Origin: a virus
Direction: 5' to 3' (one strand)
Virus record (IMG/VR): IMGVR_UViG_3300045684_000050
Span: 1 to 64,000 of that record
DNA: 64,000 nt
Shown here: positions 2,983 to 39,397 of the stretch, piece after piece
Numbering within the stretch: position 1 is the stretch's first letter
How the letters are laid out: each line of letters starts with the position of its first letter
Made by a program: the position numbers and the translations under genes
Notes under the pieces: generated by a model
The model's input: the letters and a program-made list of their open reading frames with translations, nothing else
Told to the model about the DNA's origin: nothing
Database searches by the model: none

Positions 2983-3150
2983 ATGTAAATAGATATTAGA
3001 TAGTGAGTATATCTATTAACATAGGGTTTCATATTTATATGATTGTTGTACTAATCATATAGAGAATTTTGAGACTGGGATATTTGATCCTTCGCCACAA
3101 GATGTAGTATTTATAAGGGTTTCATCTGTTTTAGGATATGATGTGCTAAC

Positions 3151-3274
3151 TATGTAATTGTATATAAACTTTAACACTTCTAATGTAAATTAAATTATAA
3201 AATAAAGATAATTATAGTTATCTTTATAACATCAATAACAAAGGAAGTATTTCTTAACAATAACAATAACAACA
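3151..3274 (+). promoter_or_regulatory. Early promoter/leader module, copy 2 (TATCTTTA at 3219-3226; 11-6-11 inverted repeat at 3201-3228)
   Basis: Direct-repeat partner of 182-306; precedes the RadC-like ATG. Confidence 0.7.
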
Positions 3275-5513: not shown

Positions 5514-5927
5514 ATGAAAACATATAAGCACACAAATCCTATATTATATGATAATGACTATACCTTCAAAGTTGACGAATCATATTTAGTAGAAGTACCA
5601 CTTGGCCCCAATCATTCCGAAATGGGATACAACGCACAGATATTTTACAAAGGATCATTTTTAGTGACGTGTAGAATCACAGAATCCAGATTATTAAATG
5701 AATACAAACCCATGATTGATATTACCAATAGGTTATTCAGAATCAAATCGAAATGGTGTGACAGTCCAGAAGAAAAACATACTCTATATATAGTGACTGA
5801 AGATAATGGAGATAGATTATTTGCCAAACCATTCGAATCAAAATTATCAATAGTTCCAACATCTTTATTTAAGAGAGACATGATAAATCTTTTACCACCA
5901 ATTGATTTACTAGATAAAACCAAATGA
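5514..5927 (+). CDS. Hypothetical protein (137 aa)
   Basis: Tightly packed ATG ORF. Confidence 0.75.
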   Translation: MKTYKHTNPILYDNDYTFKVDESYLVEVPLGPNHSEMGYNAQIFYKGSFLVTCRITESRLLNEYKPMIDITNRLFRIKSKWCDSPEEKHTLYIVTEDNGDRLFAKPFESKLSIVPTSLFKRDMINLLPPIDLLDKTK

Positions 5928-6223
5928 AAAAATTAAAGAAGCATCATAACTGGAATCAATATTCAGAAAAGGAATTACTGGACATCAATGAGAAAATAAC
6001 AGATGCCATCAATTATAAACGTCGCATCAAAGCTATTGCAATCAAAGCAAAGTTATCTATTGGCCAGACAGTCAAAATTGATGATCTTGAAGATAGAAGA
6101 TTTTTAAATAAAGATTTTGTAATACAATCCATCAAAGAAAATCATGCAATGGTAAGATTGTTTTATGAAGAAAAAGAAACTTTTATTACCTATCGAGTAC
6201 CATTATCTATAATTATACCTTAG
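5924..6223 (+). CDS. Hypothetical protein, possible SH3/KOW-like C-terminal half
   Basis: ATGA overlap with the previous gene; LSIGQTVKI...FVIQSIKENHAMVRL pattern. Confidence 0.65.
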   Translation: MKKLKKHHNWNQYSEKELLDINEKITDAINYKRRIKAIAIKAKLSIGQTVKIDDLEDRRFLNKDFVIQSIKENHAMVRLFYEEKETFITYRVPLSIIIP

Positions 6224-6268
6224 ATTATGTCTCACTATCTATGACAATCCTACCTGAAAATGGGATTT

Positions 6269-6299
6269 GATACCTTTCCTTCTGGAGAGGTATCTTTTT
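6269..6299 (+). terminator. Rho-independent terminator
   Basis: GATACCTTTCC-ttct-GGAGAGGTATC followed by TTTTT. Confidence 0.8.
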
Positions 6300-6324
6300 A
6301 ACAATTATTAAAACACATAAACAT

Positions 6325-6849
6325 ATGGACTTCAACTACCTAATCAAAAAATTTAAAATTGCTTATTCTAAAATGAGGATGGTAGATCATAAGACAGCAC
6401 CTAAGATGATCAAAGATATAATTACATATTCCTTTGAAAGTAAGATTTTGATGGAAACTATTAACTGTCTCTATGACAATTTAGATTTATTAACCTTCAT
6501 AGATAGTAATTCTAAAAGAAATGGCTATACTTCTTTCGTAGTCCTTTACGCTGACATCAATGATGCATACCGCAAAAACTATAATGATAAATATAACGAA
6601 ATGCCTGACTATCCAGTTAAAGATATAGTCAAAAAACTCAATGAACTGAAATTCTATAACCTTATCATAATGAAGGACGACAAAACCCCAAAAGCAATAT
6701 TGTCCAAAGAAAAATTCAAAATATTAGATAAAGTCTATATCCAACAACGAGACCCAGATATAATGATCAATAAAGAAATAGTCAATGACCTATTCGCATT
6801 TTTAAATAAATTCAATATGACAGCACCCGCTTTCTTTACTCATTCTTAA
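6325..6849 (+). CDS. Hypothetical protein (174 aa)
   Basis: ATG ORF with A-rich leader. Confidence 0.75.
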   Translation: MDFNYLIKKFKIAYSKMRMVDHKTAPKMIKDIITYSFESKILMETINCLYDNLDLLTFIDSNSKRNGYTSFVVLYADINDAYRKNYNDKYNEMPDYPVKDIVKKLNELKFYNLIIMKDDKTPKAILSKEKFKILDKVYIQQRDPDIMINKEIVNDLFAFLNKFNMTAPAFFTHS

Positions 6850-6861
6850 TATCCAGGTACA

Positions 6862-6955
6862 TATAAACTTTAACAAAATTATTATCATCTTTTATTATTA
6901 AATGTAGATAACAAAACATATCTTTATATTATTAAATAACAATAACAAATTAACA
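6862..6955 (+). promoter_or_regulatory. Third, more diverged promoter module upstream of the clamp gene (TATAAACTTTAACA ... TATCTTTA at 6919-6926)
   Basis: Shares TATAAACTTTAACA, TATCTTTATA and the AATAACAATAACAA leader with the modules at 182 and 3151. Confidence 0.6.
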
Positions 6956-8323
6956 ATGACAACGACAACAAAATCCACAACTAAGGAAGCAACAGCTACT
7001 AAAGCACCTGTAAAGCCTAAAGCTGAAGTTAAGAAAGCAACAGCTACTAAAGCACCTGTAAAGCCTAAAGCTGAAGTTAAGAAAGCAACAGCTACTAAAG
7101 CACCTGTAAAGCCTAAAGCTGAAGTTAAGGAAGCTGAAGTTAAGAAAGCACCTGTAAAGTCTAAAGCACCTACACATAAGAATGTTGAAAAACCTTATGT
7201 GATCGAGATCAAAAATTCCGTTCTATCTGATCTTATTAAACAGGCAGATGTTAAAGCAAGGAATCCAGTCTTACCTATCTTGGAAGACATCTTATTCCAA
7301 GTGAAAGGCAATGAACTGAAAGCAATGACAACCGATCTTGAATTATCCAAGGTAGTCTCCACAACTTTTTTCAAGAAACAGGATGAAAGAGATTTTAAGG
7401 TTATGTATCCTAAGAGGATAAATTTAAAACCTTTTAGTGACTTACTGACTATATCTTTCCAGATAGTAGAATTGACTAGAGGTGCTGATGTGTCTACCTA
7501 TGTACACGTAAGTGTTACAGATGGAGTGAATACCATCAATATGAAAACAGATGATGCCTTAGATTATCCTATATTGCCAAAACTAGGAACGGAAAAAAGT
7601 GTTGACATCTTACATGGTGAAGACCTGAAAGAACTTAAAAAGCTTATTGCCTATACTTCTGATGATGAACTAAGAGCATCAATGACAGGCATATATTTCA
7701 ATGCCAAAAACAACCGTATTGAAGCTACTGATGCCCACAAGTTAAAATGGTATGACAAACAGATGAAAGGAAGCTTTATATTGCCGTCAGCAACAGCAAA
7801 ACATATTACATCATCATTCAGCCATTCGTGTACTATAAAGCTATATGATAAAAATGTAGTTTGTTCTGACAATGACACAGTTATCGTATCAAAAATAATT
7901 GATGCCAAGTATCCAGAGATACAGGCCGTCATTCCTTCAGAAGACATGTTCACTTCAATTGTATCATTCGACAAAAGTGAAATGGTAAATGCTTTAAATA
8001 TAGCATTGCAGACCGTCAACACAACTACCAATAAAGTTGAATTGGACTTGACTGAAAATTCAATTACCATATCATCAGAAGATATTGATTGTTGCATATC
8101 GTCTTCTATCAAAGTATATGCTAATGTAGGCAAAGGTGAAGCAGCAACAAGAAAAGAGAATCCAGAACCACAATGTATGAGAATAGCTTTCAATGGTAAG
8201 TTCTTACTTAGCATACTGAATGATCTCAATGAAGATGTAGCAGTACTAAAACTTTGTGCAGCTAACAAAGCTACAATAGTAAATGACAGAATATTAATCA
8301 TGCCAATCTTGCTTAGTAAGTAA
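6956..8323 (+). CDS. dnaN: DNA polymerase III beta-type sliding clamp with an N-terminal Lys/Ala/Pro-rich repeat extension
   Basis: Clamp motifs PILEDILF..K.NEL..MTTDLELS, SDDELRASMTGIYF...EATDAHKL, IDAKYPEIQAVIP, IAFNGKFL and C-terminal LIMPILL. Confidence 0.9.
   Translation: MTTTTKSTTKEATATKAPVKPKAEVKKATATKAPVKPKAEVKKATATKAPVKPKAEVKEAEVKKAPVKSKAPTHKNVEKPYVIEIKNSVLSDLIKQADVKARNPVLPILEDILFQVKGNELKAMTTDLELSKVVSTTFFKKQDERDFKVMYPKRINLKPFSDLLTISFQIVELTRGADVSTYVHVSVTDGVNTINMKTDDALDYPILPKLGTEKSVDILHGEDLKELKKLIAYTSDDELRASMTGIYFNAKNNRIEATDAHKLKWYDKQMKGSFILPSATAKHITSSFSHSCTIKLYDKNVVCSDNDTVIVSKIIDAKYPEIQAVIPSEDMFTSIVSFDKSEMVNALNIALQTVNTTTNKVELDLTENSITISSEDIDCCISSSIKVYANVGKGEAATRKENPEPQCMRIAFNGKFLLSILNDLNEDVAVLKLCAANKATIVNDRILIMPILLSK
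6987..7129 (+). repeat. Coding tandem repeat, 48-bp unit x3 (ATATKAPVKPKAEVKK)
   Basis: Units at 6987, 7035 and 7083, followed by partial KAEVKKAPVK copies. Confidence 0.95.
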
Positions 8324-8340
8324 TAGGATTATTGGTTATC

Positions 8341-8377
8341 AAGTCAGTCCTATAGAGATATAGGGCTGACTTTTTTT
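8341..8377 (+). terminator. Rho-independent terminator after the clamp gene
   Basis: AAGTCAGTCCTATA-gaga-TATAGGGCTGACTT followed by a T tract. Confidence 0.9.
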
Positions 8378-8414
8378 CACAAATGCTTTTTATTCACAGA
8401 TTAAAATTAAAATT

Positions 8415-8561
8415 ATGTATCAATGTATGTTTACTACTATTGGTTGTGCTTATTCAAGTAATTACTATGACTTACCTACAAACAATGAAAAAGAGATAAT
8501 AGAAATCATAGAAAGTCAAGGACATGAAGTGTTAGAAGTTTTTGGTATTAAAAAACAATAG
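8415..8561 (+). CDS. Small hypothetical protein (48 aa, MYQCMFTTIGCAYSSNYYDLP...)
   Basis: Not in the ORF track; ATG after an A/T-rich leader; fills the gap. Confidence 0.5.
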   Translation: MYQCMFTTIGCAYSSNYYDLPTNNEKEIIEIIESQGHEVLEVFGIKKQ

Positions 8562-8589
8562 ATGCTATTTTCACTTTAAAATCAATAAA

Positions 8590-9018
8590 ATGGTAGATAA
8601 AGAATATACTCCACACTTAGATCAAATGTCAAATCTTATTATGAAGTACCAGACAGACATGCAGAAAATGACTGATGTAGAAATAATGGAACTTCGGGCA
8701 GAACTATCCATAATTAGATATAGATGTATTGAGGAAGAATTTCCCATATTTGGAACTTACAAAACATCTTCTAAATTAGCTTTCACTAGGACAGAAGGAG
8801 AAATATATAAGAAATGCCTAAGACAGGTAATCCAAGAAGGTTATTCTAAATCACAAGCCAAAGAAATGGCAGGAAAATACTTGAAATGTGACCCAGATTA
8901 TCTTTCAGCAATGGAAGACATGGAGACATGGAAGGACGCTTATTGGCAAATGGATGGACTTATTGATGCTGCCAAAGATATTCTCAATACCATGTCTAAA
9001 AGAAAACCTCATGAATAA
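8590..9018 (+). CDS. Helical hypothetical protein (weak resemblance to UvsY-like recombination mediators)
   Basis: Likely ATG at 8590; coiled-coil character, KYLKCDPDYL. The family call is weak. Confidence 0.6.
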   Translation: MVDKEYTPHLDQMSNLIMKYQTDMQKMTDVEIMELRAELSIIRYRCIEEEFPIFGTYKTSSKLAFTRTEGEIYKKCLRQVIQEGYSKSQAKEMAGKYLKCDPDYLSAMEDMETWKDAYWQMDGLIDAAKDILNTMSKRKPHE

Positions 9019-9073
9019 CAAAAAACCATTATATGTATGATTTGCATTATCTAACCACATAAAAAAATAAAAA

Positions 9074-9589
9074 ATGCCAAAATTCACCTATTATCCTATT
9101 GCAGAAAAATTAGAAGTAGATGGTATAGTCTACAATGTACCTATTAAAACCTTTGCTGAAAAAGCAGGAATGAAAATAGTCAGTAAAAATATATCTATTA
9201 GCGGAGATGATGATGATATACTTGTCACCAAACATTTCTTAGATGGTATAGAATCAATGAGTATCAATTATGATAATCACATTGATGTATTAGAATCAAT
9301 ATACAAAGACATATTGGCCAAAGACATTCCTAAAAAGAAAGAGCCTAAAAAATCTATGGCTAATCTTCCGCAAGAAAAAAGGACTCAACACCCGGTAATC
9401 TATTTCATTAAAGATAACATATTCAAAAAATCAGTCATTTGTGAACGATTAGGACTTAATAAGGCCAATATGTCCAGACTGATGAACTCTGATACCCACC
9501 AACCTAATGATAATACCATTAGTAAGCTAGAAAACTTTATGTCTAACTATGGTTATATACCCGTAGACCTATTTGAAGAAAAAAAATGA
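9074..9589 (+). CDS. Protein with a C-terminal XRE/Cro-type HTH
   Basis: KSVICERLGLNKANMSRLMNSDTHQPNDNTISKLENFM. Confidence 0.65.
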   Translation: MPKFTYYPIAEKLEVDGIVYNVPIKTFAEKAGMKIVSKNISISGDDDDILVTKHFLDGIESMSINYDNHIDVLESIYKDILAKDIPKKKEPKKSMANLPQEKRTQHPVIYFIKDNIFKKSVICERLGLNKANMSRLMNSDTHQPNDNTISKLENFMSNYGYIPVDLFEEKK

Positions 9590-10146
9590 ATCTCACCAGA
9601 TTAAAACAGCATGAGAAATGGGAAAGGATAAAGGCAGGTACTACATGTCCATATTGCTTTAAAGCTAGCAAATTAATTCCAGCAGTATATGTATATGGAT
9701 ACAAAAATAAACTCAATGGTAAATATGTAAGGCGATGTAAAAAATGTGATGCATTGGTAGGTTGTCATGGCTATTCTAAAAAAGCTATGGGTATTCTTGC
9801 GAAACCAAATGTTCGTATCCTTAGAAAGAAAGCTCATGAAGAATTTGACTATATTTGGCAATATAAGATCAAACGTGAAAATTGTTCCAAAAAACATGCC
9901 AGACAATTAGCCTATGAATGGTTAGCAAATCAATTAGATGTAGAACTAGAGGATTGCCACATTTCTCAATTTTTCGAATTTGAACTCAAAGAGACAATTA
10001 GAATATGTAGTAAATATGTAAAGAAGATTAAAAAGTTTTTGCGTAACAACAATGGAGAAATTCCTATTCGAACACCTAAAATTAAATGTGTGTCTTCATA
10101 TATCCCAATGACAATTCAATTTATACAAAAATCAATAAATGGATAA
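9586..10146 (+). CDS. DUF3268-family zinc-finger protein
   Basis: CPYC...CKKCDALVGCH...LRKKAHEEFD.IW...AYEWLANQL...CHISQF. Confidence 0.8.
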   Translation: MNLTRLKQHEKWERIKAGTTCPYCFKASKLIPAVYVYGYKNKLNGKYVRRCKKCDALVGCHGYSKKAMGILAKPNVRILRKKAHEEFDYIWQYKIKRENCSKKHARQLAYEWLANQLDVELEDCHISQFFEFELKETIRICSKYVKKIKKFLRNNNGEIPIRTPKIKCVSSYIPMTIQFIQKSING

Positions 10147-10978
10147 CAATAACACCTTTTACAATAGATTTAATGATGATGAACTTGCAGAAGCACTCAA
10201 AGTTTTGCAAGAGACACAGTATACTGGTGAGAATGTAAATTTACAAAGAGAAGACTTTCATTTTGAAGTTAAAGATGGTCATAAGTGGTCTGGATTGCTT
10301 TGTCCAGGAGGATGGCTGACATTTGGTGGGCCAGAAAAATCACGAAAGTCTACTATAATGGGTATGCTATGTTCTGCAGCACTAATACCTGGAGGAACTT
10401 ATGAAAATATATTTTGTAAAATGGACCCCAGAAAGATCGTATACTATGCTGATACAGAAAGATCCAGATTCGAATTTAAAAAAGGAATGGATGTTATAAT
10501 AAAAAGTGCAGGTTTAACACGTAAGCCAGATAACTTCATTTCTCATCAAATGGTAGCTATATCAGATCCCATAATAAGATTTAACTCTATAGTGGCAATG
10601 ATACAAACATACAAAGAAGACTTAGGCTTACTTTGTATTGATGGTATAGCTGATTTTGTGCCTTCAGTAATGGATGAAAAAATATGTAAGGAAATGGGAG
10701 ACATACTAAATGGACTTATTAAAGAATTTAATATTATGCTTATCACACTGGTTCACCTCAATAGACGCGATACAAGACTTAATGGCAGCTTAGGTGTCGT
10801 ATTAGACAAGAAAAGCTCATATATCTCATTACTTGAAGTGTTGGACGAAGACTCACCTACTATTGTAAGTACATATAGAAAAAGAACGAGTGAAAGCTTT
10901 AAACCTTGGCAATTTACATTTGGAGAAAATGGACTGCCGGTAGCAATTGAACAAACTATAGCCCCGAATTTTTATTGA
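10139..10978 (+). CDS. RecA-fold AAA ATPase (AAA_25/RepA/DnaB-like helicase domain)
   Basis: Walker A GPEKSRKS, YADTE, Walker B LLCIDG, LVHLNR, GSLG. Confidence 0.8.
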   Translation: MDNNNTFYNRFNDDELAEALKVLQETQYTGENVNLQREDFHFEVKDGHKWSGLLCPGGWLTFGGPEKSRKSTIMGMLCSAALIPGGTYENIFCKMDPRKIVYYADTERSRFEFKKGMDVIIKSAGLTRKPDNFISHQMVAISDPIIRFNSIVAMIQTYKEDLGLLCIDGIADFVPSVMDEKICKEMGDILNGLIKEFNIMLITLVHLNRRDTRLNGSLGVVLDKKSSYISLLEVLDEDSPTIVSTYRKRTSESFKPWQFTFGENGLPVAIEQTIAPNFY

Positions 10979-19920: not shown

Positions 19921-20394
19921 TTAAGTCCTCTTGTTTTTATTTTTGAAGCAATCTACACAAGATCCTTTTTTCGAAGGACCAGGTATTTTCCTTGCTATTA
20001 TGCTATCCTGAGTTACTATGTAAGTATATATGCTGTCTATTTGGGGCACATATGGCAACGTGTAAGAGATAATGTCACATCCGACTACTTGTGAAGGCCT
20101 ATTAAATTGAAGCCCTGACATGCCATCTAATTCGTTTATCTGGTACTCGATTATCCAGCTATAAAACTTAGATTCAAAAAAAAGAAATACTGGATCTCTA
20201 TCGACTGGGAAAACACATTGGTTATTATACAGTCCAAATGTTACAGAAATAGTGGTATCCTGCCCATGGCATACTTCGTATATCCATTCTGATGTACATC
20301 TCTTCTCATTATTTTTTACCTCAATGAAGTTCACTAACTGAGCTTGAAGGAAAATCAATGTAAAGACGAATATGGTTGTTAATATACTTCTCAT
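19921..20394 (-). CDS. Predicted secreted protein (likely start ATG 20394, MRSILTTIFVFTLIFLQAQ)
   Basis: Sec-type signal peptide; TATCTTTG box at 20400-20407; the frame stays open upstream through hairpin site S1. Confidence 0.7.
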   Translation of the reverse strand: MRSILTTIFVFTLIFLQAQLVNFIEVKNNEKRCTSEWIYEVCHGQDTTISVTFGLYNNQCVFPVDRDPVFLFFESKFYSWIIEYQINELDGMSGLQFNRPSQVVGCDIISYTLPYVPQIDSIYTYIVTQDSIIARKIPGPSKKGSCVDCFKNKNKRT

Positions 20395-20435
20395 AAAACC
20401 AAAGATAATTATTTTATTTATAAATTGAAAACACA

Positions 20436-20494
20436 TCCTAACAGTCGCTGATGATTCCATTTTTTTCAAAACGGAACATAGATTGGTGTTATAT
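20436..20494 (-). repeat. attC-like site S1 (59 bp, short family)
   Basis: ATATAAC-accaatctATGTTCC..GGAAtCATcagcgact-GTTAGGA; the 3' 20 bp are identical to S8. Confidence 0.75.
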
Positions 20495-20498
20495 GCAA

Positions 20499-20702
20499 TT
20501 ATAAAAGAGCCTTGTGGTCACGGATGGAAATTTCACATTGAGCTACCTTGCTACTTAATTTCGCTTGTAGTTGTTTGTATGTTTCATCTTTCAACCCAAC
20601 ATCGGTGTTTAACTCTTCAATTCTGTTCCAAAGCCAAAGCCATTTATCACGCTCTTTTTGCTTTTTATCAATATGAAATTCAATACTTGTTTTATTTGAC
20701 AT
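20499..20702 (-). CDS. Cassette ORF, hypothetical (67 aa)
   Basis: Between S2 and S1. Confidence 0.7.
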   Translation of the reverse strand: MSNKTSIEFHIDKKQKERDKWLWLWNRIEELNTDVGLKDETYKQLQAKLSSKVAQCEISIRDHKALL

Positions 20703-20720
20703 AATCGTTTAAATAACTGC

Positions 20721-20837
20721 CGCCAACAATGTATATAAGCCATTGTGTCGGTTCATTTCTGAAAGTGAATAGTTAATATTTATATTTGTTTTTCAATTTA
20801 ATTCTGTATTCAACGGCTCATATACAAACCGTTAGTC
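20721..20837 (-). repeat. attC-like site S2 (117 bp, long family)
   Basis: GACTAAC-ggtt-TGTATATGAGCC ... GGCTTATATACA-tt-GTTGGCG. Confidence 0.8.
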
Positions 20838-21038
20838 GCCATTAGACAATAGTTTTTCATGGTCTGATATAGATTTGTCTAGATAATACCATCTATTGTT
20901 TATGACCGTATGTATTTTTTTATACACCTCATCGCTCATTGAATTATCTGCATGTAGAATATCAGTGTATTCTTTGTACTTTTTTAGGGTCTCTTTTTCG
21001 TTTTTTATTTTTTGGATATGATGTTTTATTAAGTCCAT
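20832..21038 (-). CDS. Cassette ORF, hypothetical (68 aa from ATG 21038; in-frame TTG at 21077)
   Basis: Stop TAA lies inside the GGCGACTAAC box of S2. Confidence 0.7.
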   Translation of the reverse strand: MDLIKHHIQKIKNEKETLKKYKEYTDILHADNSMSDEVYKKIHTVINNRWYYLDKSISDHEKLLSNGD

Positions 21039-21068
21039 TTGAATAATTTTAGTGGTGAAATAAACGGC

Positions 21069-21136
21069 GACTAACAAAGTTTATCACGCTATGTCTCCCG
21101 ATGGTCGCCACATCGGATACACTTATCACGTTAGTG
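21069..21136 (-). repeat. attC-like site S3 (68 bp)
   Basis: CACTAAC ... TCCGATG-tgcgac-CATCGGGA ... GTTAGTC. Confidence 0.8.
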
Positions 21137-21517
21137 ATAATGCCATTCGAGCTTTTGCCCACAATTTGAGCAATTATTATCACCATGACCTATTTCTACT
21201 TCCTTACAATTTGGACAGATATACATTGGTGCACCATTATCCCATTGTTCATACGGGTGTTTATCTTTAATTTCATCAACAACTAAGGCACTATCACTAA
21301 CACCCAATAAACCCAATAATTTTAACTGTTTAATCTTACCTTCTTCTTCAATAAACCTAACTATTTCATCTCGTAGTCCTTCAAGATGTTCTGTAAGTGA
21401 TAATGAAGCTGGTGGTCCATCCCAAGATTGGAATTTAATCGCATTTTCTCTTGTTTGATATAAGTACCCTTGATTAAATTTCTTCTTAATTTTTTCAGTC
21501 AAAATTTTATTGTCCAT
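21131..21517 (-). CDS. Composite cassette ORF with a C-terminal Zn-ribbon (CPNC...CSNC)
   Basis: Internal GTTAGTGATA box at 21292-21301 marks the fusion point; stop lies inside S3. Confidence 0.75.
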   Translation of the reverse strand: MDNKILTEKIKKKFNQGYLYQTRENAIKFQSWDGPPASLSLTEHLEGLRDEIVRFIEEEGKIKQLKLLGLLGVSDSALVVDEIKDKHPYEQWDNGAPMYICPNCKEVEIGHGDNNCSNCGQKLEWHYH

Positions 21518-21546
21518 TTTTTTAATTTTATTAGGTAATAAAAAGC

Positions 21547-21676
21547 ATATAACAATAAATATAAGTAATAGGGCGAAGGAACGACTTTCACGGTCTGTGT
21601 TAAGCTATTTTATAAGCGAAACATTCATAGGTTTGATTCTCACATAAGCCCACTACTCATATTCTTGTAATTAGGT
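21547..21676 (-). repeat. attC-like site S4 (130 bp, long family)
   Basis: ACCTAAT..AATATGAGTAGTGGGC ... GCCCTATTACTTATATT..GTTATAT. Confidence 0.75.
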
Positions 21677-21680
21677 ACAA

Positions 21681-21860
21681 TTAAACCCAACTCTTCCAAT
21701 GTGTAGGTGTATAATAAACATACATACTTCCATCAGGTATCCACCAAAGTTTACCATCAAACTTTAATTCTTGCTCATTCCTTGTTCCGTTTTCATCTTC
21801 AATTCTAGTCATCATCACCTTATTCTTTAGTGTATGCTCTTCTGTTACTTTTTTCCACAT
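21681..21860 (-). CDS. Cassette ORF (59 aa, DUF551-like), paralogue of 25350..25550
   Basis: Not in the ORF track; ...RNEQELKFDGKLWWIPDGSMYVYYTPTHW. Confidence 0.8.
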   Translation of the reverse strand: MWKKVTEEHTLKNKVMMTRIEDENGTRNEQELKFDGKLWWIPDGSMYVYYTPTHWKSWV

Positions 21861-21870
21861 AATTAACTGT

Positions 21871-21993
21871 GCCTAACAATGTGTATAAGCAATAGCCGTT
21901 AGGCATTTTAAACTATTGCAGTTGGTAATATTTAAGTTTCTACTTCTAATCAAGTTCTGTATTCGGCTACTTGCCATATAATTAACGTTGTGC
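21871..21993 (-). repeat. attC-like site S5 (123 bp, long family) with two extra stacked left boxes at 21995-22001 and 22007-22013
   Basis: GCACAAC..GGCAAGTAGCCG ... CGGCTATTGCTTATACACATT-GTTAGGC; loop shares AATACAGAA and TAAATATTA with S2. Confidence 0.8.
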
Positions 21994-22021
21994 GGTTATA
22001 CTAAGCGTTACCTACAAGTGC

Positions 22022-22795
22022 TTACTTCTGTGTTCCAAATAAAGTTTGTGCTTGTAAATCTTTTTCTTTTCTTTTTTCTTCCACCCTCTTTTTTGAGTTA
22101 TCAAAGTGTTCTGTTTCGTTCTCAATACCAATGCCATTCCTATTAGTTTCAATACAAGAAACCATTGTTGTTCCACTTCCCATTGTCATATCCAATACCG
22201 TTTCGCCTTCATTTGTATAGGTATTAATCATATAAGAACAAAGTTCGGTTGGCTTCTGTGTTGGATGTAATTTACCGCTACTATTGTGGACGCATTTGAA
22301 GTTTAACAATGCTGTATCAGGAGAAATCCAATCGCTTTGTCTATCCAAATATTCTTCTTTTTGCTTTCCGTAGTTGCTTGTTTTCGAGTTGTACTTATTA
22401 CCGCTTTTGACCTCTGTAGTTCTTTTTTTCTTCTGTGGATTGTAAGTCGGTGGCTTTTTATAAAATACCTGCAAAGTTTCGTGTCCACCCATAGGCATTC
22501 GTCTTGCGTTTAGGTTTCCAGTCTTTAAGTTTTTTACCCATACCCACTCGTATTTGTGATATTTTATTTGTGAACTTATTAGAGTGGTTGTAAACGGTTG
22601 AGCAGAAAAAATAACTACTGCTGCATTAGGTTTACATACACGCCATACTTGTTTCCACATTTCTCCCAAGTCAATTATACTATCCCATTTGTTCTGAGTA
22701 GTCCCATAAGGCAAGTCGCAAAGTATCATATCAACACTTCCGCTTTCAATCGTTTTCATTACTTCGAGGCAATCGCCATACTTTAAGTCAATCAT
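22022..22795 (-). CDS. N4/N6 DNA methyltransferase (beta class), cassette cargo
   Basis: YGDCLEVM, DMILCDLPYG, HPTQKP, VLDMTMGSGTT. Confidence 0.92.
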   Translation of the reverse strand: MIDLKYGDCLEVMKTIESGSVDMILCDLPYGTTQNKWDSIIDLGEMWKQVWRVCKPNAAVVIFSAQPFTTTLISSQIKYHKYEWVWVKNLKTGNLNARRMPMGGHETLQVFYKKPPTYNPQKKKRTTEVKSGNKYNSKTSNYGKQKEEYLDRQSDWISPDTALLNFKCVHNSSGKLHPTQKPTELCSYMINTYTNEGETVLDMTMGSGTTMVSCIETNRNGIGIENETEHFDNSKKRVEEKRKEKDLQAQTLFGTQK

Positions 22796-22894
22796 ATATT
22801 TTAATTTTTCAAATTAATTTTGCCAACGCTCAAAAAAAGAAGAAAAAAGGTCTGTGTTTATAATCAAAGTTTGTGCTTTAAAGTCGCACCAGAC

Positions 22895-22955
22895 ATACAA
22901 CACGTAATATAATTAATGGCAAAAAAGCCACTAACCATATTACCATACGTTATCT
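22895..22955 (-). repeat. attC-like site S6 (61 bp); additional orphan GTTGGCA box at 22821-22827
   Basis: AGATAAC-gtatgg-TAATATGG-TTAGTGGC-tttttt-GCCATTAA-TTATATTA-cgt-GTTGTAT. Confidence 0.8.
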
Positions 22956-22960
22956 ACAAA

Positions 22961-23167
22961 CTAATCCTCATTTGCTAATTTATCACGCCATCCAATAATT
23001 TCTTGGCAAGCACCCGTACAAAAACATTGTTGGTTTTTGCACCCTTTTTTTATAGCTACTTTTCCGTTAGTCTGTTCTTTCATTGCATCAAATTTGAAAG
23101 TAATGTTGCTGTTATCGGCTATAAAATCATTGCATTGTTTTTCTTTTGAAATGTTTTTTGTACTCAT
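22961..23167 (-). CDS. Cassette ORF (68 aa) whose start and first ~20 codons lie inside site S7
   Basis: QCNDFIAD is encoded by the right arm of S7. Confidence 0.7.
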   Translation of the reverse strand: MSTKNISKEKQCNDFIADNSNITFKFDAMKEQTNGKVAIKKGCKNQQCFCTGACQEIIGWRDKLANED

Positions 23168-23243
23168 AATTTTATGCTTTTAATTAATATTATTGTTTTA
23201 TTTTAGGTCGGCAACGAGAGTTTACCCGTAGCCGTTGTTGTAA
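23108..23243 (-). repeat. attC-like site S7 (about 136 bp; right box degenerate and inside the CDS)
   Basis: TTACAAC-aa-CGGCTA...GTTGC pairs with GCAAT...TAGCCG. Confidence 0.6.
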
Positions 23244-23252
23244 AACACAGCC

Positions 23253-23807
23253 TCACTTAACTAATCGTTCTTTCAACCATTCAGCCCCAGCTTTAAAAGA
23301 GCCGTAATTATCTCCTGCTGTATTGTTATTATTGCTCCACTTGTGGCCATTCAGATCAAACACCCAGTGGTCGGCTGCATCTGCAATTTGTTCATCGCTC
23401 GGCAACCAGTTTAAAACAATGTGTATATTGCATTGCTGATTTAGTTCTGCACATAGCTTAGTATTCGCAGCATTTTTACGAGTGCTATTAAGAAAGTCTG
23501 CATATTCTTTTGCATAGATTTCTAATCCTTTTGGGAATATTACAACCTCATAACCTCTTGCATCTAATACTGATCGCATATGCTTTCTTCCAACTCTAAA
23601 TGGCTGAAAAAAAACGGGTGCTAACAAATTATTTACGTCAGTTTGGTTATCTTTCTTTTTTAGTTCTCTATTCCAAACCATATTTATAGAGTCAGCATTA
23701 TTTTCTATAAATCTGCTGTCCCACTTTAAAAAGGATAATAACATATTTAGTAAGTCAGCTATAATCGCCAAAGGACTTAGTATTGTTTTAATTATAAGTA
23801 TTAACAT
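23253..23807 (-). CDS. Three-part composite cassette ORF (184 aa)
   Basis: Internal right-arm relics at NNLLAP (GTTAGCACC, 23617-23625) and QCNIHIV (ATATACACATTGTT, 23415-23428). Confidence 0.7.
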   Translation of the reverse strand: MLILIIKTILSPLAIIADLLNMLLSFLKWDSRFIENNADSINMVWNRELKKKDNQTDVNNLLAPVFFQPFRVGRKHMRSVLDARGYEVVIFPKGLEIYAKEYADFLNSTRKNAANTKLCAELNQQCNIHIVLNWLPSDEQIADAADHWVFDLNGHKWSNNNNTAGDNYGSFKAGAEWLKERLVK

Positions 23808-23837
23808 AATTTAAGTTTAAAAAACATCATAAACACA

Positions 23838-23892
23838 TCCTAACAGTCGCTCACGATGCCATCTTTCAGACGGCACATAGCTTGTCTTTATG
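23838..23892 (-). repeat. attC-like site S8 (55 bp, short family; left box degenerate)
   Basis: caagctATGTGCC-gtctgaaagat-GGCATCGT-gagcgact-GTTAGGA. Confidence 0.75.
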
Positions 23893-24328
23893 TGTCATCA
23901 GATAGTAGCCTTTTCTTTAATACTTGGGTACAGAAATCATCTTCTTTTATATCACCATCAGCGAAGCAATGATCCCATAATTCAGTATTCGACATAGATA
24001 AAATATCATTCTCATATTCAGAGACCCCATTTTCAATATTTTGTTTTAATCTAATCCCAACTAAAGCATCATTAATGCCTCTCAACATTTTAGCCTTCTT
24101 TGGATCTTTCCCCTGTACCGCATCAGCAGTATCTATTAATGTACGCTTTTCAGTATGCCTAACACCTTCTACCTTATCTTCATATCTGCGTATAGTAGCT
24201 AATGCTTCAAAGAAGTCTTCAGTATCCCAATTTTCCCAACAGGCGTGAACCATTGCATGATTAAGGTACCATTTTTTTAAATTTTCGCTGATTTTCATAA
24301 GTTGAAATTTATGCACGATTGATAACAC
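23888..24328 (-). CDS. Cassette ORF, hypothetical (about 136-146 aa)
   Basis: Between S9 and S8; stop lies inside the left box of S8. Confidence 0.75.
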   Translation of the reverse strand: MLSIVHKFQLMKISENLKKWYLNHAMVHACWENWDTEDFFEALATIRRYEDKVEGVRHTEKRTLIDTADAVQGKDPKKAKMLRGINDALVGIRLKQNIENGVSEYENDILSMSNTELWDHCFADGDIKEDDFCTQVLKKRLLSDDT

Positions 24329-24384
24329 TATGTATGATGTCAGACTCGTGCCTCATCCGAACACATACATTTTAACCGTTAGCG
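24320..24384 (-). repeat. attC-like site S9 (65 bp)
   Basis: CGCTAAC..ATGTATGTG-TT-CGGA-tgaggcacgag-TCTG-a-CATCATACAT-agt-GTTATCA. Confidence 0.8.
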
Positions 24385-24588
24385 AAAATAATCACCTAAC
24401 AATTTTATTATTTCATTTGATATATCTTGCCTACCTTGAAAGTATTTAACATTTGAACTATTGTGAGGTAATTTACCTATTGTTTCGCCTGATTCTTTTT
24501 TGTCATTTTTGACAAAAGAATTTACTTTTGCTAACAAGGTATAAAGTTCATTGCTTAAATCTTTTTTGAGGGTATTTTCTGTACTCAT
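24379..24588 (-). CDS. Composite cassette ORF (69 aa) with a site-derived leader ELYTLLAK
   Basis: Internal GTTAGCAAAA at 24526-24535; stop lies inside S9. Confidence 0.7.
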   Translation of the reverse strand: MSTENTLKKDLSNELYTLLAKVNSFVKNDKKESGETIGKLPHNSSNVKYFQGRQDISNEIIKLLGDYFR

Positions 24589-24617
24589 AATTTAAGTTTA
24601 AAAAATATTATAAAGTT

Positions 24618-24680
24618 ACCTAACAGTCGCTATATGATCATTCTCCTTGCGTCGAACGACTACATAGCTTAGTGTTATCA
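24618..24680 (-). repeat. attC-like site S10 (63 bp, short family)
   Basis: TGATAAC-actaagctATGT...CATATagcgact-GTTAGGT. Confidence 0.8.
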
Positions 24681-25058
24681 TCAATTGATTCCAAAACCAC
24701 CATCTACTATTTCGATACATTCATTTACACTATCTTTTACTTTGTAGTCATAATTTCCTCCATCATCTTCTTCTAGTATGCTTTTCAGCTTTCTCATCGA
24801 GTTGATATTTTCTAGTTTTGATTTCCCTATCATTTGATGCTCTAGTATTACTTTGTCACCATTTGTTTCATAGTCTTCATCGTACCCTTTTAGGATTCGT
24901 AGTATGTGGTAATCGTTAGTGTCTGGAGTGATGTATATTTTTTCATACTCATCATACATTCCTTCAAAGTTCTTTTTTGCGAACTCTGTTATGTCTGTCG
25001 CTTTTGCAAATTCAAATTTCATTGTTTTAGTTTTTACGTTTAAAAAAGATGATAACAT
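24681..25058 (-). CDS. Cassette ORF, acidic hypothetical (113-125 aa)
   Basis: Between S11 and S10. Confidence 0.75.
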   Translation of the reverse strand: MLSSFLNVKTKTMKFEFAKATDITEFAKKNFEGMYDEYEKIYITPDTNDYHILRILKGYDEDYETNGDKVILEHQMIGKSKLENINSMRKLKSILEEDDGGNYDYKVKDSVNECIEIVDGGFGIN

Positions 25059-25114
25059 GGATTATACTCCATATTCCGCTTTGCTCCATACATGATCATA
25101 CTCAGGCGTTATAC
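25050..25114 (-). repeat. attC-like site S11 (65 bp)
   Basis: GTATAAC ... GTTATCA; inner stem imperfect. Confidence 0.7.
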
Positions 25115-25363
25115 AGAATGTAAAGAAAGCAGATAGTCAGCGGCTTGTATCTCCTTATCAAACCATCCCTCTGGATATTCAACCCATCTTTTATTTTCTG
25201 TTTTCATTTCAACTAATCTAAGCCGCCAATCAAGCAGTTCATTAATTGATGGAAGTTTATTTGTTCTTTGATAATCGGATATTAATACACTCTGTATAAC
25301 ACCCGATATGTCGCTATATTCGTTCCTCATACATCGCATATCTTTACCGTTAGTGACCATTAA
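25109..25363 (-). CDS. Cassette ORF whose start codon and leader (MRCMRNEYSDISGV) lie within site S12; exact start uncertain
   Basis: 3' part of ORF 25109..25447; stop lies inside the left box of S11. Confidence 0.55.
   Translation of the reverse strand, partial: LMVTNGKDMRCMRNEYSDISGVIQSVLISDYQRTNKLPSINELLDWRLRLVEMKTENKRWVEYPEGWFDKEIQAADYLLSLHSV
25294..25355 (-). repeat. attC-like site S12 (62 bp)
   Basis: CACTAAC-ggtaaag-ATATG-CGATGTAT-gaggaacga-ATATAGCG-a-CATAT-cgggt-GTTATAC. Confidence 0.8.
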
Positions 25364-25550
25364 TAGAAGAAAGAACATAATCCCAATAATGGGTAGGAGA
25401 ATAGTAAACATACATGGAGCCATCGGGAAACCACCAAAGTTTACCATCGAATTTTAATTCTTGTTCATTTCTAACTCCGTTTAGGTCATCAACCTTGGTT
25501 TTCAAGATTTTATTTTTCGGAGGATTTTGTTTCGATATTTCAATCCACAT
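25350..25550 (-). CDS. Cassette ORF (66 aa, DUF551-like), paralogue of 21681..21860
   Basis: RNEQELKFDGKLWWFPDGSMYVYYSPTH; stop lies inside S12. Confidence 0.8.
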   Translation of the reverse strand: MWIEISKQNPPKNKILKTKVDDLNGVRNEQELKFDGKLWWFPDGSMYVYYSPTHYWDYVLSSINGH

Positions 25551-25556
25551 GATTTT

Positions 25557-25925
25557 TTAATTTGAGTGACGTTGTGAATATACCCGAAGGCAGTTTTTAC
25601 AGGCATTGCCGAGAGGTAGGTTTATTGTCATCCTAAAGTTGCCATTTTCATCAAATCCACGTCCGCAAATTGGAGCGGAAACATGGCTTGCTGGAATTAG
25701 ATTTTTAGAGTCTTTTCCTTCTCCGGCTTCATATACGAGGTGTAATTTTTGACCTCCTTTGATTTGCATATATCGCATGATAAATAATTGAAAAGATGAA
25801 AAGAAAACGGTCATTAACAAGGTACTCAACGTCAATACCTCCCATACGGTCGGTACTGCGTGAGTACAAACCGATATGTCCATTGCTCGTGCCTCACAAC
25901 GGCACATAGCCAAACCGTTGTGCAT
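25557..25925 (-). CDS. Cassette ORF; the N-terminal ~38 aa are site S13 read in frame, the true start is probably MRYMQIK
   Basis: C-terminal part KLHLVYE...APICGR...CKNC. Confidence 0.65.
   Translation of the reverse strand: MHNGLAMCRCEARAMDISVCTHAVPTVWEVLTLSTLLMTVFFSSFQLFIMRYMQIKGGQKLHLVYEAGEGKDSKNLIPASHVSAPICGRGFDENGNFRMTINLPLGNACKNCLRVYSQRHSN
25812..25923 (-). repeat. Composite attC-like site S13 (112 bp, two hairpins in tandem)
   Basis: GCACAAC..TATGT-GCC-GTTG-tgaggcacgag-CAAT-GG-ACATA, then GTACTCA-CG-CAGTACC..GGTATTG-a-CG-tTGAGTAC-ctt-GTTAATG. Confidence 0.75.
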
Positions 25926-25930
25926 AATAG

Positions 25931-26092
25931 CTACACACCAGATATACCCAATAATTTTAACTTAGCTTGGTGGTATTCTTCCATCGCATCGCTTATTCCA
26001 ATGTGTATATTGCCAATCATATAATAATACTCGCCAACGTGTTTCTCTAATATTTTAAGTCGTTCTCTATGTTCTATTGCTTCTTTGTTCAT
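25931..26092 (-). CDS. Small ORF (53 aa, ...HQAKLKLLGISGV*) ending at a degenerate right box
   Basis: Not in the ORF track; preceded by a left arm ATACAAC-gcttac-GGCTATG (26138-26144). Confidence 0.6.
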   Translation of the reverse strand: MNKEAIEHRERLKILEKHVGEYYYMIGNIHIGISDAMEEYHQAKLKLLGISGV

Positions 26093-26156
26093 TTCTGTTT
26101 TATTTAGTCGTTAAAATTTCTGTGCATAGCCGTAAGCGTTGTATCACATACGCCCA

Positions 26157-26294
26157 CTAATAATTCAAGCAACTACGGAAGTATTGTAACCCTTTTCCGT
26201 ACCCCCAATACCATCTGTGGCTTATTGTGTACATTCCAAGAAATCCATGCTCTACATAAGCCCATTTTTGTTGTCTGTTAAATCGTATTTTCAT
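26157..26294 (-). CDS. Small Trp/Tyr/Gly-rich ORF (45 aa), first cassette position
   Basis: Not in the ORF track; MKIRFNRQQKWAYVEHGFLG... Confidence 0.5.
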   Translation of the reverse strand: MKIRFNRQQKWAYVEHGFLGMYTISHRWYWGYGKGLQYFRSCLNY

Positions 26295-26448
26295 ATTCCT
26301 TTGAGTTACTCCTATTTATAACGCAAGTTAAAATAATATTTTAACTTAAGCAAATTAATTCGTACATCATGATTAACAATAACAAAATATAAATGATAGA
26401 AGACATTATATGTAACTGTGATAAATATATAGTTACATGTTCAGGTAG

Positions 26449-38236: not shown

Positions 38237-39397
38237 CTAAAATGGTAAATCCTCATAATCCTGTAATGGTGGTGCATCTTCAGGGAAATTAGTATTCTCA
38301 ACACCTGGAGATTTAAAAACTAATCTATCAGGTCTCACTCTATCTTGCCCTACTGCAGGGGGTGGCTGCATCTGTGGTGGCGGTGGAGCTTGTTGTACCT
38401 GTGGTGGTGGCTGTGGTGGTTGATATTGCTGTACTGGAGGCCCTTGTGGTGGAGCTATCGGTGGTGCTTTAACAGGAGGTGGAAATCCAAAATCATCAGG
38501 CCTGGTAGCTTGTCCAAACCCAGCTTGTGGAGAATCAGGAGGTTTTTGGTATCCACCAACTTGCCTTGAAGGGTCAGTATTGTACGTCTGATTTATCGGA
38601 GGTGGTGGTGCCGGCTGCTGATACTGTTGCGGTGGTGGTGCCGGCTGCTGATACACATGAGCCGGAGGTTGCGGCTGCTGATACTGTTGCGGTGGTGGTG
38701 CCGGCTGCTGATACTGTTGCGGTGGTGGTGCCGGCTGCTGATACTGTTGCGGTGGTGGTGCCGGCTGCTTACCTGTAGTCTGCGGTGCATATTGCTGCTG
38801 TTGTGCATATTCATCATATTCGTTTGGGCCCTTTATGCTTTTCAAAATACTTAGCTTGTGAGCAACATCCTGAGTAAACCAACTATACAATGTAGCATTC
38901 TGCTCCCTATAATCCCAAGTCATCCCTTCATACCCCCTAACCTGTACAGGCGGTGGTAAATTATCTGAAGAATATGCTGGAGTTAACTTACTACCGTCCT
39001 GGAATAAATTTAACCCTACATTCCTTTTTCCATCATTCCCGGTGATATCATAAGGAACAATAGTCATTTCTTTCATAATATCTACGTTCCTAAAAATCTT
39101 AGCAAACCTTTTGCCATATCCACTATCAAAAGGAAATGCCAATGAAATTTTATCACCATCAGACTCCATCCATAACCGGATCTCCATGGCATTAAACTTC
39201 TCGTTATTCTGAACTTTAATATCAGAAATATGAGCACTAATGCTACTGAATGAATAGTAGTACAATATACTACCATCTTTCTTCTTTCTAGTGTTCAACT
39301 GATATTGTGGCTGCTCTGGTTGCTCATTAAATGATTGTGTCAACTTACCATTGTAAAAAGATAAGTAAGATGACGAAGATGCTTGTGTTACCTTCAT
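38237..39397 (-). CDS. Probable single-stranded DNA-binding protein with a long Pro/Gln linker
   Basis: Folded N-terminal ~190 aa, PQ-rich linker, acidic C-terminal tip DYEDLPF; located in the replication cluster. Confidence 0.65.
   Translation of the reverse strand: MKVTQASSSSYLSFYNGKLTQSFNEQPEQPQYQLNTRKKKDGSILYYYSFSSISAHISDIKVQNNEKFNAMEIRLWMESDGDKISLAFPFDSGYGKRFAKIFRNVDIMKEMTIVPYDITGNDGKRNVGLNLFQDGSKLTPAYSSDNLPPPVQVRGYEGMTWDYREQNATLYSWFTQDVAHKLSILKSIKGPNEYDEYAQQQQYAPQTTGKQPAPPPQQYQQPAPPPQQYQQPAPPPQQYQQPQPPAHVYQQPAPPPQQYQQPAPPPPINQTYNTDPSRQVGGYQKPPDSPQAGFGQATRPDDFGFPPPVKAPPIAPPQGPPVQQYQPPQPPPQVQQAPPPPQMQPPPAVGQDRVRPDRLVFKSPGVENTNFPEDAPPLQDYEDLPF
38601..38770 (-). repeat. Coding tandem repeat, 30-bp unit (QPAPPPQQYQ), about 5-6 copies, one degenerate
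   Basis: GGTGGTGGTGCCGGCTGCTGATACTGTTGC repeated on the + strand. Confidence 0.92.

Follow-up and report, generated by a model that had tools for sequence, protein, structure and literature searches.

A probable integron-like cassette array in a putative crAss-like phage, with apparent in-frame fusions of neighbouring cassettes

The 64,000-nucleotide stretch analysed here (the window) comprises positions 1 to 64,000 of IMG/VR record IMGVR_UViG_3300045684_000050. The record is a complete virus genome of 116,794 bp that carries direct terminal repeats. Between approximately 20.4 and 26.2 kb it carries about 15 small minus-strand open reading frames (ORFs), which are separated by imperfect hairpins as judged from predicted folds and inspection of the arms. 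We find that this region is probably an integron-like array whose cassettes are exchanged at the AAC triplet of the coding strand, and that fusion proteins encoded in it would be the result of secondary lesions that freeze neighbouring cassettes together. A preliminary description of the region, made from the sequence alone, had noted that hairpin arms are translated within ORFs and proposed a system that shuffles protein domains as well as whole genes; the observation is partly confirmed by our analysis and the interpretation is partly supported. Gene content, such as the ORFs of 4289 and 1803 amino acids (aa) in the ORF list of the window, suggests that the virus is a crAss-like phage.

The array consists of hairpin sites with complementary boxes

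The hairpin sites display conserved AAC and GTT triplets, paired R and L boxes and an unpaired spacer, as expected of integron sites or of attC clusters without an integrase (CALINs). The motif TGTTAG is present in 28 minus-strand copies in the window, ten of which fall in the array, a four-fold enrichment given that the array makes up 9% of the window. A longer arm motif (TATAYA, 2-3 nt, TTGTT) occurs three times in the 64 kb, each time in the array and once within ORF 23253-23807. Pairs of GTT and AAC boxes that lie 40-700 nt apart and are complementary at 11/12 positions or better number four in the array (0.69 per kb) and two in the other 57 kb (0.03 per kb), compared to a mean of 0.25 in shuffled sequence. 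[quoted passage not shown] On visual inspection, the longer spacer and an extra G seem to belong to the AAC-side arm (coding strand).

In the layout that we propose, each minus-strand cassette would run from just past one AAC through the next AAC. It would begin with the 5' hairpin arm and a loop of 3 to ~170 nt, continue with the 3' arm, a short spacer and the GTT box, and end with the gene body and a terminal AAC box, which usually carries the TAA stop and is complementary to the GTT box of the same cassette. In the site at 20712-20845, other contigs of the source run have the same two arms with a loop of 2-3 nt in place of the 67-nt loop (joint between 20744 and 20812), identifying this loop as a variable insert.

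The following cassettes and boxes, all on the minus strand, are used in the comparisons below.

21130-21144, minus strand: terminal AAC box of the zinc-ribbon cassette, including the TAA stop.
21287-21301, minus strand: GTT box of the zinc-ribbon cassette, within an ORF, with 3' arm and spacer upstream (21302-21319); 14/15 complementary to 21130-21144.
24378-24673, minus strand: cassette whose small hairpin (24615-24673) is followed by a leader, a gene for 69 aa (24379-24588) and, at 24378-24388, the terminal AAC box.
24674-25107, minus strand: cassette with a 125-aa ORF that has two candidate start codons, one (25056-25058) sharing the G of the GTT box (25048-25056) and the other 12 codons further on.
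25108-25348, minus strand: cassette of 241 nt whose hairpin (25292-25348) contains the ATG (25337-25339) of the 76-aa gene 25109-25339; terminal AAC box at 25108-25118.
25349-25872, minus strand: cassette with a hairpin (~25821-25872), a GTT box (25809-25818), genes 25557-25778 (73 aa) and 25350-25550 (66 aa) and a terminal AAC box (25349-25358).

Cassettes differ between phages and within a population at the coding-strand AAC

As comparison loci we used other phage contigs encoding proteins identical or close to those of the array, and read their DNA. These cross-phage comparisons, together with unitig breaks in the probable source metagenome, indicate that recombination joins the cassettes at the AAC of the coding strand. 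The zinc-ribbon gene (protein 100% identical) is found with two different upstream genes and two different downstream sequences, and DNA identity extends from just after the preceding AAC to its own terminal AAC. The cassette occupies four contexts (L027-L030); homology ends at once past the AAC of box 21130-21144, and the downstream neighbours in L027 and L028 differ from that in L029. Similarly, the 241-nt cassette 25108-25348 recurs in L043-45 between unrelated flanks (12/40 identities on each side), and loci L037 and L038 differ by one additional, AAC-bounded cassette of ~220 nt. The homology block at the end of the third module of ORF 23253-23807 also stops at AAC, and a nucleotide alignment of 25832-25348 to L050 and L051 (85% identity over 486 nt) terminates exactly at AAC 25349. 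Overall, approximately 10/24 mosaic boundaries lie at (T)AAC.

In the probable source metagenome, unitigs break at 24378-24380, 24649-24678 and 25108, which are three AAC boxes, and the two cassettes between the breaks have depths of 17.9 and 15.4 compared to 21-22 outside. No break is seen at the GTT boxes 24535, 24624, 25056 or 25300. The array is thus polymorphic for the presence and absence of cassettes within one natural phage population, and every clean presence/absence difference as well as every unitig break falls at an AAC box, none at a GTT box. For the cassette 24674-25107, which lies between breaks at both of its AAC boxes and is the one with a depth of 15.4, GTT and terminal AAC box are complementary at 10/12 positions.

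Since the crossover lies at AAC, the gene downstream takes both the hairpin and its GTT box along. The classical arrangement, in which the ORF stands upstream of its own attC on the top strand, is therefore not what we find: hairpin and GTT box go with the downstream ORF. Our first working model, in canonical orientation with the attC behind its ORF and the crossover at the coding-strand GTT, was ruled out by the cross-phage comparisons. The GTT-to-AAC stretch that had been proposed as the mobile unit likewise does not correspond to the ends of homology blocks or of the population polymorphism; the 'sub-gene cassette' would instead be a gene body enclosed by the R-box halves of its own cassette, with the start normally upstream, in the hairpin.

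The cassette 25349-25872 carries two genes. Its GTT box 25809-25818 pairs with the terminal box 25349-25358, and the adjoining stem arms differ from those of L050 by two compensatory pairs. An additional cassette boundary near 25571 was considered and dropped, as L050 shows 25557-25778 and 25350-25550 to be parts of one cassette.

Many genes appear to start inside their own recombination site

For several families, sequence comparison places the start codon in the 5' arm or in the loop, so that the 3' arm and the GTT box are normal N-terminal codons of a single gene. In the cassette 25108-25348 the ATG is in the 5' arm, 9 nt past AAC, and the homologues P0158 and P0159 (73 and 76 aa) begin there as well. 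The longer ORF of 112 aa at 25109-25447 is over-called, since the homologue starts define a real gene of 76 aa at 25109-25339. In this cassette the GTT box is complementary to the terminal box at 11/12 positions, and in comparison to L043 the first 86 nt contain 0 mismatches and the other 155 nt contain 29 (57-nt hairpin region versus the rest of the cassette, Fisher p = 3e-4).

The gene 24379-24588 encodes an orphan 3' arm and GTT box (24525-24546) as codons 14-22. Its homologues in L046 and L047 (47% identity, 70-71 aa) align from end to end, including the residues encoded by the arm. The cassettes of these homologues have, immediately past AAC, a 5' arm that pairs with the 3' arm read as codons before the GTT box, and the 117-nt AAC-to-GTT interval contains the leader and the ATG. 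In the window cassette 24378-24673 the matching 5' arm has been replaced. In L047 (780-1147), the homologue of this cassette is tandemly duplicated, its own 5' arm and leader recurring behind it.

The long-loop design is also seen in the native cassettes of the second (L036) and third (L038) module of ORF 23253-23807, of the zinc-ribbon gene (L027) and of a 101-aa gene in L030 (5513-5818). The genes of P0009, P0008 and P0002 and the 101-aa gene of L030 likewise start inside the hairpin. Long-loop stems were reached by 0/500, 1/500, 10/500 and 13/500 shuffles; the 101-aa gene has a 16-nt stem equalled in 0/500 shuffles, with a 173-nt AAC-to-GTT interval that includes the ATG. Taken together, the substitution-free 86 nt, the compensatory pairs and the stems that surpass shuffled sequence argue for selection on the hairpins at the DNA level. 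The gene for 101 aa ends with exactly the last 24 nt of the zinc-ribbon gene, terminal AAC box included, and is otherwise unrelated to it.

These data also bear on which of the boxes are translated. The seven peptides quoted in the preliminary description as arm-encoded are all encoded on the minus strand where it had placed them, and the homologues of the genes at boxes 24535 and 25300 contain the arm-encoded residues. The same homologues argue against its listing of 24379-24588 and 25109-25339 as fusions: it had stated that constant co-occurrence of the N- and C-terminal parts would refute the idea, and in both cases the two parts co-occur. Box 25818 is not translated as supposed. It lies in the untranslated leader of the real gene 25557-25778, because 176 homologues of this gene (67-127 aa, mostly ~72) begin at an internal Met. 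The element at ~23103-23135, which had been listed among the translated boxes, proved to be a homologue of the 3' arm followed by AAC boxes rather than by GTT. Arm-encoded peptides do recur in otherwise unrelated proteins, as had been anticipated; domain exchange is not necessarily the cause, as cassettes of one site type share their arms.

ORF 23253-23807 joins three cassettes in one frame

The clearest candidate for a fusion of cassettes is the following ORF.

23253-23807, minus strand, 184 aa: three cassettes in frame, with module 1 at 23649-23807, module 2 at ~23466-23640 and module 3 at ~23253-23450.
23617-23654, minus strand: fusion junction 1, with an AAC box (23646-23654), a 20-nt remnant without hairpin and a GTT box (23617-23625).
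23409-23471, minus strand: fusion junction 2, where the frame passes through an entire, decayed site whose AAC has become AAT (23463-23465) and whose GTT box is at 23409-23417.

A phmmer search of this ORF against 1.8 billion representative proteins returned matches that split into residues 1-53, 55-117 and 113/120-184. Module 1 corresponds to the stand-alone 57-aa protein P0010 (85%), module 2 is found in many proteins of 49-198 aa (mostly 57-110), and module 3 is a very widespread 45-residue domain; P0009 and P0018 (60-75 aa) are among the stand-alone matches. A 331-aa protein, P0037, considered as a homologue of nearly the full span, aligns convincingly over module 3 only. The three parts are thus known separately, lie in one frame here, and the intervening sites are lost or decayed.

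At junction 1 the window is 13 nt shorter than the stand-alone gene in L034, and the TAA of the TAAC box is therefore out of frame. In L036, the native cassette of module 2 forms a 9/9 stem, and its ATG lies within the 119 nt from AAC to GTT. At junction 2, the 5' half equals the site 24615-24673 except for the AAC-to-AAT change, and the 3' half matches the arm of the site 21866-22000 at 13/14 positions. The homologue-derived module boundaries coincide with the boxes, including those of junction 2, and a single unitig of the source run covers 20300-24380 without any difference at a depth of 21.

It has a very low probability that nothing special is present, i.e., that boxes within ORFs arise by chance in AT-rich coding sequence and that the long ORFs are artefacts of ORF calling or assembly. 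In keeping with that explanation, box 25818 and the 112-aa ORF are indeed over-calls, and TTGTTAG occurs five further times on the same strand outside the array. Furthermore, the earlier count of 12 of 18 boxes crossed by the frame of the downstream ORF is approximately reproducible (13/20) and carries no weight as evidence: it equals the chance expectation of two-thirds, because only one frame of GTTAG reads TAG, leaving two-thirds of the boxes open by default. Of the 13 boxes crossed in this way, only seven are in well-supported coding sequence. Against chance stand the enrichment of motif and complementary pairs in the array (~4- to 20-fold), the conservation of in-ORF boxes together with their partner boxes in other phages, the intact unitig across 20300-24380 and the coincidence of homology-derived module boundaries with boxes, which already largely refute it. 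For the boxes 21301, 23417 and 23625, where there is no alternative start and homologues define the modules, the reading of hairpin arms as coding sequence holds.

We conclude from the sequences that real fusion proteins appear to arise secondarily. In ORF 23253-23807, the TAA of a terminal TAAC box would come to lie out of frame, or the AAC would mutate, and the following hairpin would be deleted or decay, allowing translation into the next cassette; both junctions fit this route. By a second route, another ORF would replace the 5' arm and loop of a cassette, as in 21131-21517 and probably in 22961-23167.

Chimeric N-termini and the question of a second exchange point

The second route is suggested by the first two of the following ORFs; the third is related to the junction of 21131-21517.

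21131-21517, minus strand, 128 aa: N-terminal module (~21344-21517), junction (21302-21345) and zinc-ribbon body (21134-21301).
22961-23167, minus strand: 5' part (leader, N-terminal codons, 3' arm) resembling that of 24379-24588, two in-frame AAC triplets at ~23106-23116 and an unrelated Cys-rich body.
25931-26092, minus strand, 53 aa: gene with homology to the junction of 21131-21517 at its 3' end (25917-25965), where the relative of the GTT box reads as a stop.

Residues 4-59 of 21131-21517 match the C-terminal part of P0007 at 86% identity; this protein of 149 aa has its own stops and no zinc ribbon. Residues 72-128 are 79-94% identical to P0002-P0006, which carry three other kinds of N-terminus; the zinc ribbon itself is Pfam PF13248 (residues 97-123). 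The GTT box of the cassette and the 18 nt upstream are identical across L027-L030, with 17 substitutions in the interior of the gene, and L031 has a compensatory change in the box pair. The stretch 21131-21300 had been described as a startless zinc-ribbon domain with perfect complementary ends. It does contain only the startless domain, and the ends match at 14/15 positions. Between 25917-25965 and the junction of 21131-21517 there is a local alignment of ~60 nt with one gap, and the same tail is found in L035. In L031 (200-300), a copy of the zinc-ribbon cassette lies ~100 nt downstream of an apparent tRNA 3' end, possibly a hot spot for insertions. ORF 22961-23167 is probably a third chimera, sharing ~75 nt at ~75% identity with 24379-24588 in local alignment, in the 5' regions only.

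An exchange of partners had been suggested as a check of domain shuffling, and parts of 23253-23807 and 21131-21517 do occur alone or with different partners, with junctions at or near boxes. This raises the question of whether GTT-to-AAC units are sub-gene cassettes moved by the system itself, with a crossover at the GTT box (for example on the other strand) and domain shuffling as its normal output. The zinc-ribbon body and modules 2 and 3 of 23253-23807 indeed have many different N-terminal partners, no fewer than four in the case of the zinc ribbon; many homologues begin within a few residues past the box (their residue 3-6 corresponds to query residues 63-66 or 135-142); the break in L031 is at GTT within ~3 nt; and classical integrases can recombine the other strand at low frequency (PMC5027507). 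We nevertheless judge a GTT crossover improbable. The breakpoints of one body, that of the zinc ribbon, scatter at -18, ~0 and ~+15 nt relative to GTT and are not fixed at the V or L codons as had been predicted, and the 69-nt island around the arm that is common to the unrelated proteins P0007 and P0008 breaks off ~25 nt past GTT. Moreover, the clean presence/absence differences and unitig breaks avoid the GTT boxes altogether, and two of the listed cases have both parts co-occurring in homologues. Breakpoints thus vary in their position relative to GTT and do not demonstrate a programmed shuffling of domains.

A further, distinctly doubtful possibility is a site with two cargo compartments, the loop with an N-terminal leader and the body, in which the 3' arm and GTT box would at low frequency offer another point of exchange, either through site-specific recombination of the other strand or through arm homology. 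Such a site would re-sort leaders and bodies and weld cassettes, as an exon-shuffling-like generator of small phage proteins.

Alternatively, the arms could be short patches of homology like the PeSL motifs of T4-type phages, at which general or illegitimate recombination during co-infection swaps both sides and no site-specific enzyme is involved. This explanation, which we consider unlikely but worth serious attention, has precedent (PMC2839356, PMC4122927) and is favoured by islands of 24-75 nt around the 3' arm that are common to otherwise unrelated ORFs, by the scatter of breakpoints around GTT and by the lack of a recombinase in the genome. It does not predict the cassette-specific GTT and AAC boxes, complementary from end to end (up to 14/15) and with compensatory changes; the junctions are sharp at a 3-nt AAC even between unrelated neighbours; and a Xer-like recombinase adjoins such an array in the related locus L040.

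The genome has no recombinase, and related loci adjoin one

In the complete 116,794-bp genome, searches with PF00589, PF00239 and PF01797 (tyrosine recombinase, serine recombinase and Y1 transposase) gave no match, with control genomes positive. The 40.8-kb phage contig L040, which has a Mu-like portal, encodes a Xer-like tyrosine recombinase (5644-6678; 151 bits to the XerD model) directly upstream of ten small genes (6657-10264), the last of which is the zinc-ribbon cassette. An assignment of this enzyme to IntI was rejected (TIGR02249 92 bits against a cut-off of 265; 22% identity to the true IntI of L048). L048, a Malikia-like contig (4900-7791), contains a bona fide integron integrase (TIGR02249 460 bits, cut-off 265) adjoining a second, phage-type integrase. 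Its small genes are oriented towards intI, and 1.5 kb from the integrase it has a 66%-identical homologue of the window gene 25557-25778, flanked by a 9/9 complementary pair of GTT and AAC boxes. In the window, a recombinase supplied in trans would exchange the cassettes at AAC.

In three otherwise good sites of the window the AAC is mutated, at 23836-23886 (AAA/GAC), 23463-23465 (AAT) and ~25873-25879 (ATC), consistent with site decay in a genome lacking a recombinase. Given this lack, the dead junctions are probably frozen decay products that selection tolerates or uses, not the output of a dedicated domain-shuffling step.

Further searches and other repeats of the window

Rfam, which does not include an attC family, gave 0 matches in 20300-26400 at E values up to 1, and Pfam and PHROGs gave the zinc ribbon and weak matches on the array, nothing further. 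A 15-base pattern derived from three sites had 26 single, unrelated matches in IMG/VR, as by chance, and tblastn with three array proteins found no match among 50,697 phage records. In a blastn search with the region, the sole match was the methyltransferase region, related to the DNA methyltransferase of Polaribacter phage P12002L. The search for related loci in IMG/VR found nothing for the C-terminus of the neighbouring 1803-aa protein, nor for 25112-25300, 24382-24588, 24684-25058 and 23891-24328. Of sequencing runs that contain the region, the probable source DNA run is the sole one listed, with no RNA run among them.

Elsewhere in the window, tandem repeats of 32 nt and 29/41 nt (1-224 and 2476-2976) and a block of ~96 nt in three copies (177-272, 3146-3241 and 6845-6935) lie near the left genome end, possibly an origin or iteron region or an early-promoter region. 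In-frame tandem repeats of 48 nt (6934-7167) and 30 nt (38571-38799) are contained in ORFs 6956-8323 and 38237-39397, respectively.

Discussion

Integron-like or attC arrays in phages are not new as such. CALINs have been published for virulent phages (Qi et al. 2023, PMC9892861); one of these is Polaribacter phage P12002L, and in the same study IntI1 recombined its attC. Like integrons and CALINs, the array has imperfect hairpins with AAC/GTT triplets, complementary cassette ends and presence/absence differences exactly at the triplet, and like the CALIN of P12002L its small cargo genes include a related DNA methyltransferase. In classical cassettes, the attC follows the ORF, and cassettes facing the opposite way are said never to have been observed (PMC5027507). 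Here, in contrast, the hairpin moves with the downstream gene, which often starts inside it, the mirror image of the classical cassette. In attC the extrahelical bases are carried by the arm opposite the recombined strand's AAC (PMC5027507), whereas the extra bases of the array seem by eye to be on the AAC-side arm; in addition, this genome has no integrase, and the related enzyme of L040 is Xer-like and not of the IntI type.

Fused cassettes formed through loss of an attC are known in class 1 integrons (PMC4670013), and both junctions of 23253-23807 fit that description. The case here differs in that it is a triple fusion of phage proteins of unknown function, that one junction is a whole decayed site serving as a translated linker and that a stop was lost via the out-of-frame TAA of the TAAC box. 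The array also resembles the PeSL regions of T4-type phages, hyperplastic regions with repeated stem-loops flanking small accessory ORFs, where phages exchange genes (PMC2839356, PMC4122927). PeSLs are shared homology patches outside genes, however, whereas the boxes here are cassette-specific, complementary end to end, joined with triplet precision and part of a motif that is partly coding; nor do a common promoter and stem-loop flank the ORFs, as a shared leader is found upstream of three genes only. With IS200/IS605 elements the array shares a hairpin next to a short cleavage motif, a single-strand logic and insertion 3' of a fixed short motif. It differs by the absence of a Y1 transposase, by one hairpin per unit in place of two subterminal ones and by the end-to-end box complementarity typical of integrons.

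Several points weigh against an integron-like array with secondary fusions. Complementarity of a cassette's own ends holds for only ~7/12 cassettes and fails in ~5/12. The apparent position of the extra bases on the AAC side differs from classical bottom strands (PMC5027507) and is not explained by an integron-like mechanism, and the analogy may fail in its mechanics. The junction of 21131-21517 is not on a recognisable AAC or GTT crossover; recombination at or near the 3' arm would likewise account for one body having several N-termini and for unrelated ORFs having one arm in common. No homologues were found for 24681-25058, 23888-24328, 20832-21077 and 22961-23167, whose starts are thus predicted only, and the fused ORFs could be untranslated wreckage.

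If the array is nevertheless what we propose, it provides a sequence-level route to new phage ORFs: cassettes whose site overlaps the coding sequence would be frozen into multi-module proteins by small lesions, namely a TAAC box shifted in frame, a point mutation of AAC or the loss of a hairpin. For annotation, starts within hairpins and ORFs over-called through sites have to be considered, and recurring arm peptides are not to be taken as protein homology. That the array is active is indicated by cassettes with 85-100% DNA identity between the putative crAss-like phage and unrelated phages of 40-60 kb, and by its polymorphism in one sediment population. In-frame welding of neighbouring cassettes would thus be one visible way in which phages build new small proteins.

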